A stretch of 64,000 bases of DNA from a bacterium (lineage in GTDB: Bacteria; Oederibacteriota; CAKKQC01), in contig CAKKQC010000008.1 in NCBI GenBank assembly GCA_919901855.1, positions 20,345 to 84,344 of the forward strand. The letters are read 5' to 3'. This document shows positions 20,758-30,359 of the stretch, piece by piece; positions within the stretch are counted from its first letter, which is position 1; every line of letters begins with the position of its first letter. The notes beneath the pieces are model-generated. The model worked only from the letters and a program-made list of their open reading frames with translations. It did no database searches and was not told the origin of the DNA. Both the position numbers and the translations under genes were made by a program.

Positions 20758-22710
20758 CTACTTTTCCTCGTACTGCCGCTTGAGCTGGGCGACCACGCCC
20801 GGATCGGCCAGCGTCGTCGTGTCCCCGAGCACGCGGCCTTCGGCCACGTCCCGCAGCAGGCGGCGCATGATCTTGCCCGACCGCGTCTTGGGAAGCTCCG
20901 AGGTGAAGAAGATATCCTCCGGCCGGGCGAGCGCGCCGATCTTCTTGACCACGTGCGCCTTGATCTCCTTGAGGAGCTCGTCGCTCGGCTGGATGTGCGC
21001 CTTGAGCGTCACAAACGCTGAAACCGCCTGGCCTTTCATCTCGTCCGCGCGGCCGATCACGGCGGCTTCCGCCACGGCGGGATGGTCCACGAGCGCGGAC
21101 TCGACCTCCATCGTCGAGATGCGGTGGCCCGACACGTTCATGACGTCGTCCACGCGCCCAAGGAGCCAGAAGAACCCGTCCTCGTCGCGCTTGGCCCCGT
21201 CGCCGGTGAAATAGAACACGCCCCGATATCGGTCCCAGTACGTCTGCTGGTACCGCTTGTCGTCGTTCAGGATCGTGCGGAGCATCCCGGGCCAGGGCTT
21301 GGTCAGCACCAGGTACCCGGCCGCGGCCGGATCGCCCGCGTCGTTTACGACCTCGGCCGAGATGCCGGGGAAGGCCAGGGTCGCGGACCCGGGCTTCGTC
21401 GCCGTGAGCCCGGGCAGCGGGGCGATCAGGATGCCGCCGGTCTCCGTCTGCCACCACGTGTCCACGATCGGGCACTTCTTGCGCCCGATGTGCTCCTGGT
21501 ACCACATCCACGCCTCCGGGTTGATCGGCTCCCCCACGGTTCCCAGCAGCCGCAGCGAGGAGAGGTCGCGTCCGGCCGGGTACGATTCCCCCCAGCGCAT
21601 GAACGTCCGGATCGCGGTCGGGGCCGTGTAGAAGATCGTGACCCGGTACTTCTCGACGATGCGCCAGAACCGGTCCTTGTCGGGGAAGTCCGGCGACCCC
21701 TCGTACATGAGGACGGTGGCGCCGTTGGCCAACGGGCCGTAGACGATGTAGGAATGCCCCGTCACCCACCCCACGTCCGCCGTGCACCAGAAGACGTCCT
21801 CTTCCTTGAGGTCGAAGATGAGCTTCGTCGTCGCGTACACGTGGGTCAGGTAGCCGCCCGTCGTGTGCACGATCCCCTTGGGCTTGCCCGTGCTGCCGGA
21901 CGTGTACAGGACGTAGAGCATGTCCTCGGCATCCATCGGCTCCGGCGGGCACGTGAGCGCCGCCTTCGCCATCTCCTCGTGGTACCAGACGTCGCGAGCG
22001 GGGTCGAACGACGCCCCCGCCGCCTCGCCCACGCGCCGGACCACGACCGTCTTCGTGATCGTCGGGCAGTCCTTGACCGCCTCGTCGGCCACGGCCTTGA
22101 GCGGCAGGATCTTGCCCCGGCGCCAGCCGCCGTCGGCCGTGATGAGGAGTTTCGCACCCGCGTCGTTGATCCGCTCGCGCAGGGACTCCGCCGAGAACCC
22201 TCCGAACACGACGCTGTGGACCGCCCCGATGCGCGTGCACGCGAGCATGGCGACGGCGGCCTCGGGGATCATGGGCAGGTAGATGTTGACCCGGTCGCCC
22301 TTGCCGATGCCGAGCCCCTTGAGCACGTTGGAGAACTTCGAGACCTCGCGGTGAAGGTCCGCGTACGTGAGCACCCGCTCGTCACCGGGCTCGCCTTCCC
22401 AGATGATCGCCGCCTTGTTCCGGCGCCAGCCGGCGAGGTGCCGGTCGAGGCAGTTCTCGGAGACGTTCAACTGCCCGCCGACGAACCACTGGGCGTGGGG
22501 CGGGTTCCAGTCGAGCACCTTCGTCCACGGCTTCGTCCACTTGAGCTCGCCGGCCATCCGCGCCCAGAACGCCTCGGGATCTTTCGCCGCCTCCGCGTAG
22601 ATCGCGCCGTCGCGCGCGTTCGCCTGGTCCGTGAAGGCCTTGGGGGGCGGGAACACCCGCTTCTCCTCCAGCAGGGCCCTGATCGCGCTCTGGGGATCCT
22701 CGGTTGGCAT
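20758..22710 (-). CDS. acs: Acetyl-CoA synthetase
   Basis: [64 protein letters not shown] precedes ATG 22710. Confidence 0.96.
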
Positions 22711-22823
22711 GTCAGCACTTCCTCCTTGCTGCTCGGTGGTTCGGGGGCTATTGAACCAGATCGTCCCACTCATGACAACCGTCAGCCTGGTGGCTGAGTT
22801 GCATCATATATACAGCGCCAGCC

Positions 22824-23672
22824 TCAGCGCGGGTGGGATTCCCCCAGCAGGACCTTGAGGTCCCGGGCGTTGCGCACCGCATGGCCCTCGGGATGGTTAT
22901 TGAAGAAGGCGAACTGGCCCGACGCCTCGTGCGCCATGGCGCGGACCTTGGGCACCCACGCCTCGAGTTCGTCCGGGCGGTAGTGGTAGCGGTAGCGCTC
23001 CCCGGGAGACCGACCTCCCGTCTCGTCGTGTCCGATCGGTTGCGAGGGATCCGGCGCGGTCGGACTCCACCATGCGGCTCTGTTCCGGCCGTGGAACCGG
23101 ACGTACCCGACCGGCCCCGTGACCTCGGCCACCGGCGGCGGCAGGTTCGGCAGTTCGGGCTCGTCGACACAGCACAGGGAGATCGCGTGCTTCTTGAGCC
23201 ACGCGATGCCATCGGGCACGAACCAGTCCTTGTGCCGGAACTCGGCAATTACGGGAGCTCCCGTGATCCGGCCCACCAACTCGCGCACATAAGTGGCGTT
23301 CGGCGGGTTGGCCTTGAACGAGTACGGGAATTGGAGCAGGACACCGCCGAGCTTGCCCCCATCGACGAACGGCTTGAGCGCCATCTTGAACGAAGGGAGC
23401 ATCTCCTCGGCCGCCTTCCCCCGCTGGTGCGTGAGCGCCTGGTGGGCCTTCACCACGAACGAGAACCCCGGCGGCGTCCGCCGGACCATGCCCTCGAGGG
23501 ACTTCAGCGCGGGCAGTTGGTAGAACGTGGCGTTCAGCTCGACCGTGTCGAACTCGGCCGCGTAGTGCTCGAGGAACTTCCCCTTGGGGAGCTTGTCGGG
23601 GTAGAACACGCCCCGCCACTCCTCGTACGAGTACCCGCACGTCCCGATCCGGATTGCCGAAGTCCCTACCAC
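22824..23672 (-). CDS. DUF72 family protein (YecE-like)
   Basis: IGTCGYSY.EW.GVFYP, VELNATFY, LLQFPYSF, EFRHKDW, YVRFHGRN, FFNNH. Confidence 0.9.
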   Translation of the reverse strand: MVGTSAIRIGTCGYSYEEWRGVFYPDKLPKGKFLEHYAAEFDTVELNATFYQLPALKSLEGMVRRTPPGFSFVVKAHQALTHQRGKAAEEMLPSFKMALKPFVDGGKLGGVLLQFPYSFKANPPNATYVRELVGRITGAPVIAEFRHKDWFVPDGIAWLKKHAISLCCVDEPELPNLPPPVAEVTGPVGYVRFHGRNRAAWWSPTAPDPSQPIGHDETGGRSPGERYRYHYRPDELEAWVPKVRAMAHEASGQFAFFNNHPEGHAVRNARDLKVLLGESHPR

Positions 23673-23730
23673 CCTATCGCGACACCCGACTACTCATGAA
23701 GCGGAAGGACTTCCATGCCCCCTACACATA

Positions 23731-23853
23731 GAGGGGACGGGACGGAGGGGACGGACGGAGGGGACGGGACGTAGTTGCATAGTTGCATAACTCGGTCAAG
23801 CGTGCGGGATGTCTCAGCGCGGTCATGGAAATGCAACTATGCAACTACGTCCC
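23731..23853. repeat. Short GAGGGGACGG tandem array followed by a perfect 23-bp inverted repeat (REP/REPIN-like)
   Basis: gggacgtagttgcatagttgcat (23766-23788) and its exact reverse complement (23831-23853). Confidence 0.85.
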
Positions 23854-23872
23854 CTAGAATGCCATAGCTCGA

Positions 23873-23921
23873 GGGACATCCTTCGGATCACCGGATTCCT
23901 CCGGCTCGTGCGCCGGGCCCC
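23873..23921. repeat. 49-bp direct repeat, copy 1
   Basis: gggacatccttcggatcaccggattcctccggctcgtgcgccgggcccc; 47/49 identical to 24958-25006. Confidence 0.9.
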
Positions 23922-23958
23922 AGAACGGTCGCGCGCCGCGTCATGCCTCACCAGAGCG

Positions 23959-24303
23959 TCAGGCCTTGGGACCGAGCTCACGGAGAAGCCTTGCGATATC
24001 GGATTCGAGCCGGGGGATGTCGGTCACGACCGTCTCCCATACGAGCGGCGCATCGACGACGGCGTAATCATGGATGAGCTTGTCTCGCATGCCTGCTGCC
24101 TTGCGCCATTCGACCTCGGGGTGGAGTGCTTTCAGCCGATCCGAGACCCGCTTGGCCGCCTCCCCGATGATCTCGAGGTTCCGGTACACAGCATCCTGCA
24201 TCATACGATCGGAAGAGAACCGTTCCCTGCCATCCTTCGTGTAATTCTTGATCATCGCGATCGCATCCCGCATGTGGGCCAGGAAGACCGCGTCGTCCTT
24301 CAC
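23959..24303 (-). CDS. hepT: HepT-like HEPN ribonuclease toxin (DUF86)
   Basis: [15 protein letters not shown] and RDKLIHDY (RX4HxY); overlaps the upstream nucleotidyltransferase stop. Confidence 0.9.
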
Positions 24304-24590
24304 AAAGGGACGGCCTCCGCAAAGATGCGGTCCTTCAGGTAGGGGCTGACACCACGCTCGCTCACCACATCGACTTCGCGTCCGAGCAGGTCACCGACAT
24401 CCTGCCCAAAGCCGATGAGATCGAATAGCGAGCGGCCATCTCGAAAAGCCACGAGCAGGTCCAGGTCACTCTCGGCTCCCGCATCCCCGCGCGCGAAGGA
24501 ACCGAACACGCGAACCCGCTCCACCCCGTATCGGGCGGCCAGACGCATGATTTCCTCGCGGCAAGGCCCGATCAGCTCCTGTATTCCCAC
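24300..24590 (-). CDS. mntA: MntA-like minimal nucleotidyltransferase antitoxin
   Basis: [19 protein letters not shown] (GSX10DXD), [13 protein letters not shown]. Confidence 0.9.
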
Positions 24591-24659
24591 AGCGATTTCA
24601 TTATGCCACAGGGGACCTCAAGGCCAAGCTCCATCGCACGAATGCGGTATCCTGTTGGT

Positions 24660-24860
24660 ATGAGTCGGCGGGGCGTCCGAGCCCGAGATGCGGCGGTGGA
24701 GAAGCGATCCGTGGCGGGAGCGGGGCGGAAGAGGCTGCTCGCCTTGACCCGCTCGGCCGCTACTGGCGCTCCCACGGACTTGGCCCGCAACCACGACCAT
24801 TACCTCTACGGCGCGCCACGGCGCGGTTCCCGCCGACGGCGGCGCAGCCGACCCGAGTAG
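24660..24860 (+). CDS. Small antitoxin-like protein (VapB-type C-terminal motif), possibly a remnant
   Basis: DLARNHDHYLYG, a motif I associate with antitoxins of PIN toxins; TATCCT-N6-ATG upstream; no PIN gene follows. Confidence 0.45.
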   Translation: MSRRGVRARDAAVEKRSVAGAGRKRLLALTRSAATGAPTDLARNHDHYLYGAPRRGSRRRRRSRPE

Positions 24861-24957
24861 CCAGCCCACCGGGGGCAGTGTCCCACAGCTCCAATTGCGC
24901 GGGGGGCGCGGGAACGGGCGGGGCCTTCAACGCCCCGGGCGAGATCAGCAGGGCTCG

Positions 24958-25006
24958 GGGACATCCTTCGGATCACCGGATTCCTCCGACTCGTGCGCCG
25001 GGTCCC
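24958..25006. repeat. 49-bp direct repeat, copy 2
   Basis: gggacatccttcggatcaccggattcctccgactcgtgcgccgggtccc; starts GGGAC and ends GTCCC. Confidence 0.9.
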
Positions 25007-25082
25007 GAGACAGCCGCGGCGCGCATCATCTCGTCCCCCCGATCCTTCCGGGCGTCTTCCACGACCGTCAACCGTCACGCCG

Positions 25083-25289
25083 CTACCATTCCCGCGTCAA
25101 CCATGCCCCGTACTCGACCGCCTGCGAGATATCCGCACGCTCCAGGTCGGGATAGCCCTTGAGGATCTCCTCGAACGGAATGCCGTGGGCCACCTGTCCG
25201 ACGATCCCGGACACGGGGATCCGCATCCCCCTGATGCATGCGCGCCCCCCCATGATCCGCGGGTCAAAGGTGATCCTGTCGAATGTCAT
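25083..25289 (-). CDS. DUF433 family protein (antitoxin-like)
   Basis: RITFDPRIMGGRACIRGMRIPV...EEIL.GYPDL...DI.QAVEY; ATG overlaps the upstream stop (ATGA). Confidence 0.88.
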   Translation of the reverse strand: MTFDRITFDPRIMGGRACIRGMRIPVSGIVGQVAHGIPFEEILKGYPDLERADISQAVEYGAWLTREW

Positions 25290-25609
25290 GCCGCCTTCGC
25301 GGCCGGCTTGAACCTGAAGCCAAGCTCGAGCCTGCCCTTGCACGCGGCCGCAATGTGGGCCAAGAGCGGCAGGGTGGGCGTGCGCGTGTCGCTGCCACTC
25401 TCGAGCCTGGCGATCACGCTCTGCGTGCTCCCGATCTTCCTCGCCAGCGCGGCCTGCGTGAGGTGCGCCCGCCGCCGCGCCTCCCGCACCGCGAGGGCGA
25501 TCTTGGTCCTCGCCCGCTCCTGCTCGTAGTGGAACCTGACCTCGGGATCCTTCAGGAGCTTCCTGAAGAACGGACCCGAGGATTCGTACCGCTTCGCCCG
25601 TCCGTTCAT
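25286..25609 (-). CDS. XRE-family HTH protein (HigA-like antitoxin/regulator)
   Basis: ARRRAHLTQAALARKIGSTQSVIARLESG...PTL; SD AGGAGG upstream. Confidence 0.85.
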   Translation of the reverse strand: MNGRAKRYESSGPFFRKLLKDPEVRFHYEQERARTKIALAVREARRRAHLTQAALARKIGSTQSVIARLESGSDTRTPTLPLLAHIAAACKGRLELGFRFKPAAKAA

Positions 25610-25672
25610 GCGCCAAGCACCTCCTGTCCCCTACTCTATACCCCTCTGGCTATGTCTTACACCACTCCCATT

Positions 25673-27964
25673 TCAACCCCATAGCTTCATCTGCCCCGGT
25701 ACATCATGGCATCTGGGACCCCCGGCGCGCCGGGCAGACGGCTCGGGCGGAAGCCGGGCCGGCTGAAGCAGCGCCTGCAGGGAGGCCAGCGGCCAGCCGA
25801 AGGGGGCGAGGACCGTGGCGGCGGCGCGGAGGGCGAGCGCGACGTAGGCCTCGGTGTCATAGGGCTCCCCGCCTTCGCGGACCTGGAGCGCGAGCGGCCG
25901 GTCCGTGCCCAGGACGTACGCGACCTTCTCCCCCGCCTCCAGCACCGCCCCGCGGCTCACCAACTGCTGGGCCGCCACCGCCACCGGGGTCGGCCGCGCG
26001 TACTCGAGCGGGCCCTTGGACAGGTGCCGGTGGATGGCGAGGTCCGGCCCCCGGAGCCGGCCAGACCGGATCGTCTCCGCCGCCTCCCGGACCCGGTCCA
26101 CGAGGCCTGCCGCGATCACGCGGGCTTCCGCCACGGACGCCGACTTCGCCAGCTCCTCGACCAGCCCCACCTGCAGCGCGCGCACGAACGGGGCCGCGTC
26201 CACGCGCCGCGCTTCGATCCCGCGCGCCTTGACCTCGCCGCTCTCGAAGACGCCCAGATACCGCTGGGCCACCCCGCGCCGCTCGTCCGCCGTGCTCGGC
26301 AGGAACGCGATCCAGCGGTAGACGCCCTCGACCGCGATCGGGAGCCCCGAGCGCCGCTCGATCTCGGCCGCCAGCGCCTCGCACTCCGACACCGTCACGC
26401 GTCCCGTGGGCTTCTCGACCCAGAGGCTGTCCACGATCCCGTGGATCATCCGGTAGCCCAGGTCCTCGGCCGCCTCCTTCGCGCGCAGGAGGGCCTCCCG
26501 CCCCCACGCCGTCGTCGCCTCGTGCGCCTCGATCCGGCCGAACCGGGCGTTGCGGTAGCCCAGGTACCCGAAGGAACAGACGAGGAGCCACTTGTGCGCG
26601 GAGACGCGCGCCTTCGCCCGGGCCCGCCCGGCCTCCGTCGGCGCGGACTTCTTCAGCTCCTTGTACTTGGCCCGCTTCACGAGGAGCGGCGCGAGCACGC
26701 GCGGGATGAGCCCCTGGCGTTTCCGGCACGACCGCAGGCCGGTCTCGGGGATGAGGTCCCCGTCCTCGCGACAGCACGGGCATCCGACGGTCTCGGGCGA
26801 GAGGTTGTGCCCCACCATGATCGCGGGATACATCGAGGCGAAGTCGAGCTCCCCCGCCCCCTCGTGCACGCCCGGTTCCGGCTGGAAGACCAGCCCGCCC
26901 TTGTCCACGGTCAGGAGTTCCTCGCCCGTCTTGAACGACTCCGTCTGCGCCTTGTCCACGGGGATGAGGATGCCGTCGGCGACCGCCTGCGCCAACTGCA
27001 TCGACGAGATCCCGGTCCCCGTGCTCGTCCGCGCGCTCACCTGCACCGGGAGCCGCGAGAGCCGGGCGGTCTCGAAGAGGCCGTCGAACCCGGTCTCGTC
27101 CAGCGTGAACGAGTTTCGCTGGTCGAGGTGAAGCCGGCCGTGCAGGATCCAGGTCTGGTCCCGGTGCACGATGCGGCCGTAGGTGAAGTAGCTCCGGGAG
27201 TCGCTCACCTTCGGCGGCCGCGAGTCGTCGCGGTTGAGGTGGAGGGGGATGCCGTGGCGCTCCGAGAGCTCCCGGAGCCGCGGCAGGAGCCAGCCGTCGC
27301 CGTACTCGGTCAGCAGGAGGTCGGGGTCGTACTCACGGAGCAGCCCGTTGATCCGGTCGAGCATGGCGGCCGGGTCGTCGCCGTCGAGGACCCGGACCTC
27401 GCCCCCGGCCAGGTGGACCTCGATCGAGCCAGCATACCGGCCGTGCGCGGGATGGCCCCCGGTCCCCTCGGCCCGCAGCCCCAGCGTCGCGAACGGCGGG
27501 ATCTCGTAGTCGAGGTCCCAGATCGAGTCCAGGCACTCGAGCCCGCGCAGGATCTCCCCGTCGATCTCCACCCGGACCCGGGCCAGCGGGTGCCGGACGG
27601 TCTCGTAGAACCAGAGCCGGTCGGCCGCTATGTCGGCGTTATAGAACGCGAAATCCGGGAAGGTCCGCATCGCCCCGGCCATGAGCCGCATGGCCCGCTC
27701 GGCGTCCCCGATCCGGATAGCGAAAACCGGGACCTCGCGGCCGGACATGAAGTCGCGGCGCACGGCTGGTTCGAGCTCCACAGGCACCCCCTGCGCCTCG
27801 ATCCACGCCCGGACCCGCTCCGTTTCCGCGGGCGCCGCCTTGAGATACGACGTGGGCCGCCACGGCTCGACGACCCGGACCCGCCGGCCGTCGTCCAGGA
27901 TCAGCCAGACCGTCATCCCCTCGGGGACGGCATAGGCATCCAGTAACCAACCCAGGGTATCCAC
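25673..27964 (-). CDS. Family B DNA polymerase, archaeal PolB2/Dpo2-like (variant motif C, degenerate 3'-5' exonuclease)
   Basis: Motif A ELDFASMYP..NLSPET; motif B KWLLVCSFGYLG; motif C HGIVDSLWV; RYLG, KARGIE.RR. Confidence 0.85.
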   Translation of the reverse strand: MDTLGWLLDAYAVPEGMTVWLILDDGRRVRVVEPWRPTSYLKAAPAETERVRAWIEAQGVPVELEPAVRRDFMSGREVPVFAIRIGDAERAMRLMAGAMRTFPDFAFYNADIAADRLWFYETVRHPLARVRVEIDGEILRGLECLDSIWDLDYEIPPFATLGLRAEGTGGHPAHGRYAGSIEVHLAGGEVRVLDGDDPAAMLDRINGLLREYDPDLLLTEYGDGWLLPRLRELSERHGIPLHLNRDDSRPPKVSDSRSYFTYGRIVHRDQTWILHGRLHLDQRNSFTLDETGFDGLFETARLSRLPVQVSARTSTGTGISSMQLAQAVADGILIPVDKAQTESFKTGEELLTVDKGGLVFQPEPGVHEGAGELDFASMYPAIMVGHNLSPETVGCPCCREDGDLIPETGLRSCRKRQGLIPRVLAPLLVKRAKYKELKKSAPTEAGRARAKARVSAHKWLLVCSFGYLGYRNARFGRIEAHEATTAWGREALLRAKEAAEDLGYRMIHGIVDSLWVEKPTGRVTVSECEALAAEIERRSGLPIAVEGVYRWIAFLPSTADERRGVAQRYLGVFESGEVKARGIEARRVDAAPFVRALQVGLVEELAKSASVAEARVIAAGLVDRVREAAETIRSGRLRGPDLAIHRHLSKGPLEYARPTPVAVAAQQLVSRGAVLEAGEKVAYVLGTDRPLALQVREGGEPYDTEAYVALALRAAATVLAPFGWPLASLQALLQPARLPPEPSARRAGGPRCHDVPGQMKLWG

Positions 27965-27999
27965 ATCGCCATGATAGTGAACGGGCGTTCACGTATCAA
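27962..27999 (-). promoter_or_regulatory. Leaderless sigma70 promoter with a LexA-type palindrome (GAAC-N4-GTTC) in the spacer
   Basis: Minus strand TTGATA (27994-27999)-cgtgaacgcccgttcac (17 nt)-TATCAT (27971-27976)-N6-GTG (27964); palindrome GTGAAC-N4-GTTCAC at 27977-27992. Confidence 0.8.
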
Positions 28000-28015
28000 G
28001 CAACCCGGCTCCGGG

Positions 28016-28588
28016 TCAGGCTTTCCGCGCCTCCCAGCCCTCCCGGGTCATGACCACATCGGATTCGAACCGGCCCTTGGCCCCCGGCGCCTGCGCATAC
28101 ATCCCGTGGAGGGTATACCCGGCCCGCCGGAACGTCCGGAGGCTCCTCGGGTTGTAGTCCCCGATCGAGAGCCCGAAGATCATGTCCGCCCCCCGCTCCT
28201 CGAACCCGAACCGGGTCAGGAGCCGGACCGCCCGGGTCCCGATCCCGCGCCCCCAGAGCCCCTTCTCGCCGATCGACAGGTCGATCCGGAACAGGAGCTT
28301 TCCCCGGTAGAGGTCGAGCAGGCGCTGGAGGTTCATCCGCTGGAGCCAGCACTCACCCACGGGAATCCCCCCGTGCTCGATCATGAACATGAACGCGGAC
28401 TCCGAGACCTGGGCATAGAGCCCCTTCGTCTCCTCCATGGTCCGGGATCGGATGTCGTCACCCTCGGAGAAATACAGGACTTCGGGATCGTTGTTCCAGC
28501 GGTAGAGGACGTCCCAGTCGCCCTCCGTCAGCGGCCGGAGAACGACCTCCCCGTCCCGGAGCGTGACCTCGTGCGTCCGGAGCGGCAC
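28016..28588 (-). CDS. GNAT N-acetyltransferase (RimJ/RimL-like)
   Basis: VVLRPLTEGD..LYRWNNDPEV, IGEKGLWGRGIGTRAV, YNPRSLR.FRRAGY. Confidence 0.85.
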   Translation of the reverse strand: MPLRTHEVTLRDGEVVLRPLTEGDWDVLYRWNNDPEVLYFSEGDDIRSRTMEETKGLYAQVSESAFMFMIEHGGIPVGECWLQRMNLQRLLDLYRGKLLFRIDLSIGEKGLWGRGIGTRAVRLLTRFGFEERGADMIFGLSIGDYNPRSLRTFRRAGYTLHGMYAQAPGAKGRFESDVVMTREGWEARKA

Positions 28589-28592
28589 GGCC

Positions 28593-30359
28593 TCAGGACG
28601 ACGGCGAGAGGGCCGCCTGCTGGCGGTAGATGTCGGCGAAATAGCCGTGGCCGTCGCGGAGCTCGGCCGGCGGTCCCTCCTCGACGATGCGGCCCGCGTC
28701 CATGACCAGGATCCGGTCGCAACTGGCCACGGAGCCCACCCGGTGGCTGACGATGACCGCCGTGCCGCCCTTCATGAACGACCGGAGGGTGGCGAGCAGC
28801 CGCTGCTCGGTCTCGCCGTCCAGGGCGCTCATGGCCGAGTCGAGCACCAGGATCTCGGGGTCGGTCAGGAGGGCCCTGGCGATCGAGAGCCGCTGCTTCT
28901 GTCCGCCCGAGAGCGAGACCCCGCGCTCCCCTATCACGGTCTCGAGGCCCCCCTTATGCTCGCGAACGAAGTCCGCGGCCATCGAGTCGTCCAGCGCCTT
29001 CCAGATCGCGGCATCGTCGCGGGCGCCCTGGGTGTAGAGCACGTTCTCCCGGATCGTGCCCGAGAACAGGACCACGTCCTGGGGCACGAGGCCGAACGCC
29101 CGGCGCACGCTCGCCAGCTCCCACTCCCTCAAGTCCCGGCCGTTGAGGAGGATACGTCCCTCCGTCGGGTCGTAGTACCGGAGCATTAGCGCCATGAGCG
29201 TGGACTTGCCGCAACCGGACGGGCCGATGATCCCGACCTGCCGGCCGGCCTGCATCGTGACCGAGACGTTGCGCAGGGACCAGGGCAGGGCCGGGCCGTA
29301 TCGGAACGAGACCTTCTCGAAGACGATCTCGCGGACGGGCTCCGTCAGCCGCGGAGCCCCGGGGGCGCTCGCGATCTCGATCGGCTCGTCCAGGAGCCGG
29401 AAGACCTTGGTGAGCGACCCCGAGGCCTGCGCGACCATCTGGGGCAGGTTGCACACGGCGATCACCGCCGGGAACAGGGACCCGAAGTAGCCGTAGAACG
29501 CGACGATGGTCCCCAGGGTGGCCTGCCCCCGGAGGTAGAGATAGCCGCCGTACACGAACACGATCATGAACCCGATGTGGATGAGCAGTCCGTTGATGAA
29601 CCCGTAGGTCGCCGAGTAGCGGTTGTACTCGACGTGCAGGTCGCGGTGCAGGAACGCGCGCTTGCCGAACTTCTCCGCCTCGTAGTCCTCGGCGGCGAAC
29701 GAGCGGACGACCCGGACGGCCCCGACCTTCTCGACCACCATCCCGCAGAGGATGCCCCAGTTCTCGCGGATCTTCTCGCTCGTGCCCCGCATCTTGGGGC
29801 GGAGCCAGAAGAACGCGGCGATCATGCCCGGGAACACGGCCGTGATCGCGAGCGTGAGCGGCAGGCTCATCCGGATCAGGATCACGTACCCGCCGAGCAC
29901 GATCAGGGCGTTCGCCAGCGCGTTGATCATGCCCGCGGTCATGACGTGGGTGATGGCCCCGGGGTCGCCCACCGCGGTCATGAGCAGCCGGCCCGCGTGG
30001 GAGCCGTCGTAGAACTTCTGCGACAGCTTGAGCATGTGGTCGGCGAGCACGGTCCGCGAGCGCTGGGTCACGACGACGAGGAGCCGGAACAGGACGCGGT
30101 TGAACAGGAACACCAGGAACGAGTTCGCGAAGAGAATGCAGGCGCCGACCACGATGACGACGACGCCCACGCTCCAGGACCAGTGGTCGGAAACGAGCAC
30201 CCGGTCCACCATGGTCTTGTTCGCGTACGGCCACCACAGCCCCAGCGTCACGCGCACGAGGATGTTCGCGATCAGGATGGACACGACCGTCCGGTGCGGC
30301 AGGATGAACTCGCGGAAGAACCGCCAGAAGTACGATGGTTCGATCTGCGCTTTAGCCAC
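28593..30359 (-). CDS. ABC exporter half-transporter (TMD-NBD), non-canonical Walker B
   Basis: GPSGCGKST, LSGGQKQR, ILVLDS (Glu to Ser), SHR. Confidence 0.9.
   Translation of the reverse strand: MAKAQIEPSYFWRFFREFILPHRTVVSILIANILVRVTLGLWWPYANKTMVDRVLVSDHWSWSVGVVVIVVGACILFANSFLVFLFNRVLFRLLVVVTQRSRTVLADHMLKLSQKFYDGSHAGRLLMTAVGDPGAITHVMTAGMINALANALIVLGGYVILIRMSLPLTLAITAVFPGMIAAFFWLRPKMRGTSEKIRENWGILCGMVVEKVGAVRVVRSFAAEDYEAEKFGKRAFLHRDLHVEYNRYSATYGFINGLLIHIGFMIVFVYGGYLYLRGQATLGTIVAFYGYFGSLFPAVIAVCNLPQMVAQASGSLTKVFRLLDEPIEIASAPGAPRLTEPVREIVFEKVSFRYGPALPWSLRNVSVTMQAGRQVGIIGPSGCGKSTLMALMLRYYDPTEGRILLNGRDLREWELASVRRAFGLVPQDVVLFSGTIRENVLYTQGARDDAAIWKALDDSMAADFVREHKGGLETVIGERGVSLSGGQKQRLSIARALLTDPEILVLDSAMSALDGETEQRLLATLRSFMKGGTAVIVSHRVGSVASCDRILVMDAGRIVEEGPPAELRDGHGYFADIYRQQAALSPSS

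Follow-up and report, generated by a model that had tools for sequence, protein, structure and literature searches.

A probable bacterial PolB2 polymerase under predicted LexA control, with a C-terminal tail apparently replaced by an insertion

Background

The PolB2 clade of family B DNA polymerases was reportedly described by Makarova et al. in 2014. The present report concerns polB2, a gene on a 64,000-nucleotide stretch of bacterial DNA (contig CAKKQC010000008.1 of assembly GCA_919901855.1; this whole stretch is called the window). Its product, a family B polymerase, very probably belongs to the bacterial PolB2 enzymes (group G2), which lack proofreading, and would be the catalytic subunit of a LexA-controlled translesion 'mutasome'. 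Enzymes of this kind have already been published; the copy described here is a further member and leaves the picture of the family unchanged.

In the phylogeny of Kazlauskas 2020 (PMC7544198) the bacterial subclade G2 is nested within archaeal B2, and B2/G2 polymerases are described as having a non-conserved Exo I, no Exo III and one conserved Asp in motif C. Timinskas 2025 (PMC11791011) describes transfer of an operon, with the gene order iRadA-PPB2-PolB2, from archaea to bacteria, predicts a PolB2-iRadA-(PPB2)3 complex and finds lexA and DUF72 genes enriched near polB2. According to the same source, β-clamp motifs occur in PolB2 or in iRadA, with iRadA the commoner carrier; a single organism 'almost never' has them in both. 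A 2026 survey (PMC12926913) reports that the exonuclease domain of G2 is inactivated and that the exonuclease sites of G1 and G3 are intact. The only member that has been assayed is an archaeal PolB2, Dpo2 of S. islandicus (PMC8764526, PMC7390963), a robust polymerase without exonuclease (Feng 2022, PMC8764526).

The locus shares with the bacterial mutasome a single-Asp motif C, a dead exonuclease domain and a full PolB fold. Genes for iRadA and PPB2 (the latter with its MGRT arm) are present in the genome with lexA beside them, a DUF72 gene lies near polB2, and a β-clamp-type motif stands at a C-terminus. In the published operons iRadA, PPB2 and PolB2 lie within ±5 genes (PMC11791011); here polB2 is on a different contig from lexA-iRadA-PPB2, with a promoter-operator copy to itself. 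Clamp motifs are seemingly present on both PolB2 and iRadA, a combination that is rare according to PMC11791011, and the PolB2 motif is on a tail replaced by an insertion.

Like Dpo2, the polB2 product is a family B enzyme predicted to lack exonuclease activity and without the first Asp of motif C; Dpo2 is likewise DNA-damage-induced and encoded with iRadA and PPB2. Dpo2 differs in being archaeal, in a clamp partner that would be PCNA (bound by a PIP-type motif and not QLxLF) and in a regulation that does not involve LexA; its motif C reads IID (PMC11791011), compared with HGIVDS here. Pol V (UmuD'2C-RecA), ImuA-ImuB-DnaE2 and yeast Pol zeta are also damage-induced, multi-subunit and clamp-tethered, with a RecA-family or accessory partner and no proofreading (PMC11791011). 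However, the catalytic subunits of Pol V and ImuA-ImuB-DnaE2 belong to families Y or C, their subunits are unrelated to those considered here, and no Y-family gene was found in this genome. E. coli Pol II (G1) resembles the polB2 product in being a family B polymerase of bacteria, induced by the SOS response, whose C-terminus bears a β-clamp motif. In Pol II this motif is QLGLF. Pol II is only distantly similar in sequence, consists of one subunit, and has a canonical DTDS motif C and an active DEDDy exonuclease.

Results and discussion

Identity of the polB2 product

25673..27964, minus strand: polB2 coding sequence, 763 amino acids, GTG start, TGA stop (from the list of open reading frames and its translation)

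As the G+C content of the window is about 70%, long open reading frames occur on both strands. One of these (25706..27946, plus strand, 746 amino acids) overlaps polB2; its translation is rich in Arg, Pro and Gly and, judged from the sequence, it is an antisense shadow, the true gene being the minus-strand frame. In that frame the G+C content at third codon positions is 0.94 and the product matches Pfam DNA_pol_B (E 5.5e-27). Compared with an 82%-identical homologue at a related locus (L010), the ratio of nonsynonymous to synonymous substitution rates (dN/dS) is 0.24 over 733 codons. L010 is from a related-locus search with the polB2 protein, which gave three loci in genome contigs and nine in metagenome contigs. 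Below, L numbers denote loci and P numbers related proteins; G000 is the genome of the window and G001 to G004 are genomes of the same GTDB family.

The genome is bacterial and carries dnaN, and this is the only family B polymerase in it. Among NCBIfam models the best match was NF004416 (archaeal-type; type B DNA-directed DNA polymerase, equivalog) at 382.8 bits. Ranked by sequence, the solved structures gave P. abyssi PolB (PolB3-type, 162 bits) before S. solfataricus PolB1 (74) and E. coli Pol II (43.5). Of 8000 candidates scored in a protein search, 3904 were relatives at E ≤ 0.001. The best 120 of these are about 750 amino acids long, and the named ones are from Nitrospira, Leptospirales, Armatimonadota and other uncultured bacteria. 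PolBs inside canonical iRadA-PPB2-PolB2 operons are 39 to 44% identical to the polB2 product. The presence of such operons among relatives, together with that of iRadA and PPB2 in the genome itself, supports the PolB2 type proposed in the initial annotation.

It could be argued that the gene is orthologous to that for E. coli Pol II or to those of the Pol-epsilon-like group G3 of bacteria, and thus encodes an accurate proofreading polymerase: several homologues have been named 'DNA polymerase II' or 'DNA polymerase-2' by JGI, and Pol II also has a C-terminal clamp-type motif. We give this practically no credence. The Pol II models of NCBIfam scored 40 to 62 bits (cut-offs 570 to 1435) against 383 for NF004416, and E. 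coli Pol II itself (from the PDB) gave the 43.5 bits already mentioned. Exonuclease residues are lost from the polB2 product, whereas G1 and G3 are described with intact sites (PMC12926913). A Pol II or G3 proofreading polymerase is refuted by the sequence, which has neither an intact DEDDy exonuclease nor a DTDS motif C.

Active-site motifs

26816..26851, minus strand: motif A, ELDFASMYPAIM, with catalytic D374 and Y379
26555..26593, minus strand: motif B variant, KWLLVCSFGYLGY
26426..26443, minus strand: motif C variant HGIVDS (residues 508-513)
27065..27577, minus strand: degenerate exonuclease-like domain (about residues 130-300)
26726..26782, minus strand: four-cysteine cluster C395-x-C397-C398 ... 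C413, following motif A

Conservation was measured in an alignment of 118 full-length relatives. The strings quoted in the initial annotation are all present in the product: FATLGLRAEG (158-167), YGDGWLLPRL (221-230), LDFASMYPAIM (373-383), CPCC (395-398), KWLLVCSFGY (458-467) and HGIVDS (508-513). In motif A, D374, F375, S377 and P380 are found in 118/118 and Y379 in 116/118. Motif B retains K458, and the canonical Asn and Tyr are replaced by V462 and F465; all of these, with W459, G466, Y467, G469 and Y470, are invariant (118/118). Motif C has lost its first Asp and retained D512, which like H508 is present in all 118. Position 509 is Ala in 112 and Gly in 6, and position 510 is Ile, Leu or Asn, with Asp at neither. 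Elsewhere in the polymerase core R581, R586, R587 and D589 are invariant and K579 is found in 117/118. Found throughout the 118 relatives, the substitutions are features of the family and not chance changes, and their reading as PolB2-type active-site substitutions proved real.

The exonuclease-like domain has Leu (L226) at the place of the Exo II Asp, as placed by HMMER alignment to P. abyssi PolB, and this position is Leu in 65 and Ile in 53 of the 118. By-eye alignment puts R164 at the place of the Exo I Asp; E166 is kept (Glu in 94, Asp in 16 of the 118). No Exo III YxxxD motif was recognisable in the polB2 product. These residues indicate that the 3'-5' exonuclease active site is lost, as the initial annotation supposed when it called the proofreading domain dead and as PMC7544198 states of G2.

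Of the cysteines following motif A, C395, C397 and C413 are present in 118/118 and C398 in 117/118. C398 and C413 align with a Cys pair of the P. abyssi (Thermococcales) enzyme, and C395 and C397 are extra. The cluster may form a metal site. The words 'cysteine' and 'zinc' have no occurrences in the available text of PMC11791011, and that of PMC7544198 has unrelated mentions only.

The replacement of the first Asp of motif C, and of the Asn and Tyr of motif B, could mean that polB2 encodes a catalytically dead relic, and inactivation of PolB2 proteins was indeed predicted in earlier literature (cited in PMC11791011 and PMC7544198). This is very improbable here. D374, D512, K458, K579 and R581 are invariant or nearly so, the dN/dS of 0.24 and the confident, complete fold described below are against decay, and Dpo2 is a robust polymerase with the same Asp loss (PMC8764526).

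Predicted structure

25676..25756, minus strand: disordered C-terminal tail (residues 737-763), predicted local distance difference test (pLDDT) < 50 in the AlphaFold2 model

An AlphaFold2 model from a 118-row alignment reached a pLDDT of 91.8 and a predicted template modelling (pTM) score of 0.90, with a complete PolB architecture of N-terminal, exonuclease-like, palm, fingers and thumb domains. It supersedes an earlier model from a 16-row alignment that was too poor (pLDDT 64.1). Foldseek places archaeal PolB3 structures first (5mdn, 1.9e-39), with E. coli Pol II in 50th place; template modelling (TM) scores to archaeal PolB structures are 0.6 to 0.74 over about 820 columns.

LexA operator and promoter

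27971..27999, minus strand: sigma-70-like promoter, -35 TTGATA (27999-27994), 17-nt spacer, -10 TATCAT (27976-27971)
27977..27992, palindrome: LexA (SOS) operator GTGAAC-N4-GTTCAC, filling 16 of the 17 bases of the promoter spacer

The promoter lies in the 51-bp intergenic spacer before polB2 and is the only promoter-like site in 25500-28700 (10/12 matches; shuffle mean 0.2). Its -10 element ends 6 nt before the GTG. The polB2 and lexA mRNAs may be leaderless, as their -10 elements end 6 to 7 nt before the starts (the second Met in the case of lexA).

GAAC-N4-GTTC occurs once in the 64-kb window. In the whole 4.68-Mb genome there are four exact copies of GTGAAC-N4-GTTCAC, where about 0.1 would be expected from base composition. 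Three of the four are the promoter spacers of lexA, iRadA-PPB2 and polB2, and the fourth is inside a gene; a fifth LexA-type site is one base off and is cut by a contig end. The layout (-35, one base, 16-nt palindrome, -10) is common to lexA, iRadA (contig C6) and polB2, and the same box and promoter layout precede polB2 in L010 and in L009 (from G004). Neither a LexA box within about 600 nt upstream of recA nor, in this 93.5% complete genome, a Y-family polymerase domain (PF00817) was found. From these sites polB2 is predicted to be under LexA/DNA-damage control. The restriction of strict LexA sites in promoter context to lexA, iRadA-PPB2 and polB2 suggests a minimal SOS regulon.

The partner genes

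iRadA is a RadA homologue without a P-loop, and PPB2 a small helical protein whose N-terminus reads MGRT. Canonical iRadA-PPB2-PolB2 operons are present at L003, L004, L011, L012, L013 and L014. The iRadA and PPB2 sequences of canonical operons of distant relatives were aligned and searched against the genome of the window. On contig C6, iRadA (E 8e-28) adjoins PPB2 (E 8.6e-27), in the order lexA, iRadA (221 amino acids), PPB2 (99 amino acids, MGRT start), a PIN-type toxin gene and unrelated genes. The lexA-iRadA-PPB2 stretch is outside the window (G000:C6:128461-130474; locus L031, 4461-6475), and LexA boxes precede both lexA and iRadA. The lexA product has Peptidase_S24 (4.4e-32) and LexA DNA-binding domains in Pfam. 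The iRadA profile matches RadA/Rad51 structures weakly (E 0.0012). With polB2 on a different contig, there is co-occurrence in the genome and no operon linkage; the genes upstream of polB2 in the window are those for a GNAT acetyltransferase and two ATP-binding cassette (ABC) transporter proteins, and not iRadA or PPB2.

In the GTDB family (five genomes) PolB2, iRadA and PPB2 were all found in G000, G001, G003 and G004, and none of the three was found in G002 (90% complete). PolB2 was found in 0/36 genomes sampled from other families of the phylum. In G003 the order iRadA, PPB2, PolB2 is kept on one contig with other genes between, and a DUF72 gene directly follows polB2.

PolB2 might instead work alone as a single-subunit SOS polymerase, with iRadA-PPB2 having another role or none. 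Its own promoter and its setting among unrelated genes (GNAT, ABC transporters, toxin-antitoxin) would fit this, as would the same unlinked layout in L010 and the in vitro activity of purified Dpo2 alone (PMC8764526, PMC11791011). Nevertheless this is unlikely: iRadA and PPB2 are intact and the MGRT arm of PPB2 is kept, operator and promoter position are identical in all three units, G003 has the three genes on one contig in the order iRadA, PPB2, PolB2, and in the five family genomes they are either together (four) or all missing (G002).

Replacement of the C-terminal tail

24955..25765: insertion of 811 bp interrupting the 3' end of polB2; it supplies the gene's present stop and final 30 codons and carries two small genes
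25286..25609, minus strand: XRE-type helix-turn-helix gene (107 amino acids) inside the insertion, Pfam HTH_3 E 1.7e-10
25083..25292, minus strand: DUF433 gene (69 amino acids) inside the insertion, Pfam DUF433 E 4.8e-23
24958..25029: repeat of 72 nt lying at the insertion's downstream end, with a second, 85% identical copy at 23873-23944
24844..24954, minus strand: relic (ALLISPGALKAPPVPAPPAQLELWDTAPGG...) of the C-terminal tail that polB2 had ancestrally, some 0.8 kb past the present stop; its former stop codon now reads TGC

In DNA alignment, homology to L010 breaks off at 25779 and is picked up again past the relic. On either side of the insertion, at 25766-25774 and 24946-24954, stands a copy of an imperfect 9-bp direct repeat (GCNCTGCTN); the two copies match at 7/9 positions and both differences are synonymous. 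The relic matches the tails of two related proteins (P0003 and P0004), and its DNA aligns to the end of the L010 gene through the stop codon of the latter. The last 30 codons, including QMKLWG, are read from inserted DNA, and the tail is therefore a replacement, given that L010 homology breaks at the insertion. On this alignment evidence the original tail, ending in AQLELWD, is cut off by the insertion, and the tail with QMKLWG is derived.

The new tail has no significant similarity to the relic (568/2000 shuffles score as high). Origin of the new tail by tandem duplication was considered and is unsupported, there being no significant DNA similarity to the relic. A tblastn search of the genome and all loci with the 30-residue tail gave, among the matches listed, none but the tail itself.

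The junction at 25765/25766 is bridged by contigs of 4/4 sequencing runs, which belong to one study and two samples and are possibly the source of this DNA. The run contigs break at a 31-nt repeat, and the order across 24958-24988 rests on the assembly, even depth and synteny with L010. The first 26 nt or so of the 72-nt repeat are a dispersed sequence, GGGACATCCTTCGGATCA(A/C)CGGATTC, with 14 copies genome-wide (C5, C12, C37, C40, C46, C56, C73). Several copies form inverted pairs 50 to 130 bp apart, which resemble the ends of a small (miniature) mobile element. By eye, no inverted copy was seen at the polB2-side end of the insertion.

Clamp binding by the new tail

25679..25693, minus strand: putative β-clamp-binding motif QMKLW (residues 758-762), one residue from the C-terminus, in the disordered tail

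The initial annotation likened the C-terminal QMKLWG to a β-clamp-binding motif. The hexapeptide is indeed present at 758-763. Its conservation is confined to the 95%-identical P0015 (QMTLWG), and it is on the insertion-encoded tail. Compared with QLxLF, QMKLW agrees in Q and L and has M in place of L and W in place of F; relatives with QLELW share the W. P0015 has kept Q, M, L, W and G, with five changes in the 24 tail residues before the motif. Close relatives (57 to 84% identity) mostly end in QLELW, QLELAF, QLEF, QQTLAF or a Q-less LLFPF-type sequence. A clamp pattern of published type is matched by 8/18 close-clade tails (shuffle mean 0.82; 0/2000 shuffles reach 8); these sequences are related, so that the count measures conservation and not independent origin.

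A complex was modelled from residues 700-763 of PolB2 (16-row alignment) and the organism's own DnaN (30-row alignment from relatives). The model gave ipSAE values of 0.69, 0.70 and 0.68, and the best of three controls gave 0.00. The mark used for ipSAE was reached by 116/157 solved complexes and 2/215 mismatched pairs. Between runs, at least 58% of contacts are the same. PolB2 754-762 (DVPGQMKLW) contacts DnaN 171, 173-176, 241-242, 245-246, 276-279, 319, 343, 345, 359 and 361-364, which we take, from E. coli β numbering, to be the pocket between domains II and III where peptides usually bind. Recruitment to the clamp through the C-terminus, which the initial annotation had proposed for checking by structure prediction with DnaN, is thus supported in silico, and PolB2 is probably tethered to the sliding clamp.

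The C-terminus of iRadA is ...PQMVFGFPE in this genome and ...RQLVLPFAPASSL in G003, both with hexapeptide-type clamp motifs by eye, and clamp-type motifs seem to be present on both PolB2 and iRadA.

It is possible, though doubtful, that QMKLWG is an accidental read-through into inserted DNA that binds no clamp, and that the clamp is reached only via the iRadA tail. The last 30 codons are insertion-derived, they have no similarity to the ancestral tail and QMKLW deviates from QLxLF. Moreover, clamp motifs are commoner in iRadA and almost never present in both proteins (PMC11791011), and the iRadA of this genome and that of G003 carry good candidates. On the other hand, a motif is rarely produced by chance: in random read-through of the organism's own genome a clamp-type motif fell ≤ 3 residues from the end in 226/200000 cases and anywhere in the tail in 4508/200000, and shuffles of the 30 tail residues contained one in 609/50000. 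The retention of Q, M, L, W and G in P0015 despite the changes before them, the pass of the complex model (0.69 against 0.00) and a motif on the ancestral tail too, as judged from the 8/18 close-clade tails, also speak against an accident.

Points against the assignment

Several observations weigh against PolB2 as a clamp-tethered subunit of an error-prone mutasome. The NF004416 score is below the curated cut-off of 516; this cut-off was passed by 0/14 control genomes, and the model is uninformative as a clade marker. The assembly of PolB2 with iRadA and PPB2 is proposed from shared regulation and published models, and polB2 does not lie beside iRadA-PPB2. QMKLW, being off-consensus and on insertion-derived sequence, could be an accident. 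The clamp model may have passed through its likeness to many solved clamp-peptide complexes, and the pLDDT of the partner in that model is 46 to 50, so that its fold is uncertain. 'Error-prone', the term used in the initial annotation, is only partly apt: the loss of proofreading stands, but the term needs refining in that Dpo2 is accurate on undamaged DNA and a very good extender of mismatched or lesion-paired ends (PMC8764526). A full-text literature search found no bench study of a bacterial PolB2, and for that reason activity, fidelity and clamp dependence are extrapolated here.

Proposed mechanism

PolB2 would have been acquired by bacteria from archaea, keeping both of the metal-binding aspartates needed for synthesis (D374 and D512) and having lost the exonuclease. 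LexA would repress the lexA, iRadA-PPB2 (C6) and polB2 promoters through the same spacer operator, which is observed at all three. On DNA damage, self-cleavage of LexA should allow transcription of all three units. PolB2 may then assemble with iRadA and a PPB2 trimer, following published models, and the β clamp would hold the complex at the stalled primer end through the QMKLW of PolB2 (from the in silico complex) and probably also through the QMVFGF tail of iRadA (by eye). Without proofreading, PolB2 could extend mismatched or lesion-paired primer ends, as Dpo2 of S. islandicus does. In this lineage polB2 stands apart from its partners, and its putative clamp-binding tail is a replacement that came with the 811-bp insertion.

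Neighbouring genes

24300..24590, minus strand: MNT of an MNT/HepT toxin-antitoxin pair, NTP_transf_2 E 9.7e-15
23959..24303, minus strand: HepT of the same pair, HepT-like E 2.7e-27
22824..23672, minus strand: DUF72 gene, Pfam DUF72 E 2e-64

The MNT/HepT pair lies between the relic and the DUF72 gene, and the same pair is found downstream of polB2 in L010 (88% identity to L010 8055-8698). A truncated ribbon-helix-helix relic is present at 24603-24860 (plus strand); its C-terminal part matches an intact 100-amino-acid ribbon-helix-helix gene after the L010 polB2. DUF72 is a known neighbour of polB2 loci (PMC11791011), and by eye the DUF72 protein of the window has no obvious QLxLF-type ending. 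Upstream of the DUF72 gene is a perfect 23-nt inverted repeat (23766-23788 and 23831-23853, with a 42-nt spacer), and similar sequence occurs on C1, C6 and C21. An Rfam scan of 22500-28700 gave sub-threshold microRNA chance matches only, including those to this repeat.

On its other side, polB2 is separated from the ABC transporter genes by the GNAT acetyltransferase gene (28016-28588, minus strand). L010 is otherwise syntenic but lacks this gene, and there an ABC gene abuts the polB2 promoter. In G003 a Schlafen/AlbA_2 and HATPase_c_4 gene (locus L007, G003:C101, 3847-5139, minus strand) lies between PPB2 and polB2, another sign of the operon being pulled apart in this lineage.

Conclusions

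Compared with the initial annotation, what is new is that PolB2 appears as one subunit of a LexA-controlled three-protein system and that the QMKLWG tail appears to be a replacement. We tentatively suggest that the insertion removed a QLELW tail, that a new, working QMKLW arose from unrelated DNA while iRadA carries a second motif, and that the split mutasome with its identical promoter-operators amounts to a minimal SOS response for one polymerase.

The locus is a readable and dated example of how a clamp-binding peptide can fall victim to an insertion and be replaced, which bears on how easily short motifs arise and on PolB2's own need for the clamp. If both motifs are functional, it is a natural experiment pointing to selection for keeping the catalytic subunit itself on the β clamp, and a hint that both pockets of the dimeric clamp can be occupied by the mutasome. 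The PolB2 system can, it seems, be split over two loci and yet stay co-regulated through a duplicated promoter-operator. In this genome PolB2 appears to be the sole translesion polymerase and to form the centre of a very small LexA regulon. More widely, many uncultured lineages are without Pol V or DinB, and in these bacterial PolB2 is a candidate polymerase for SOS mutagenesis.

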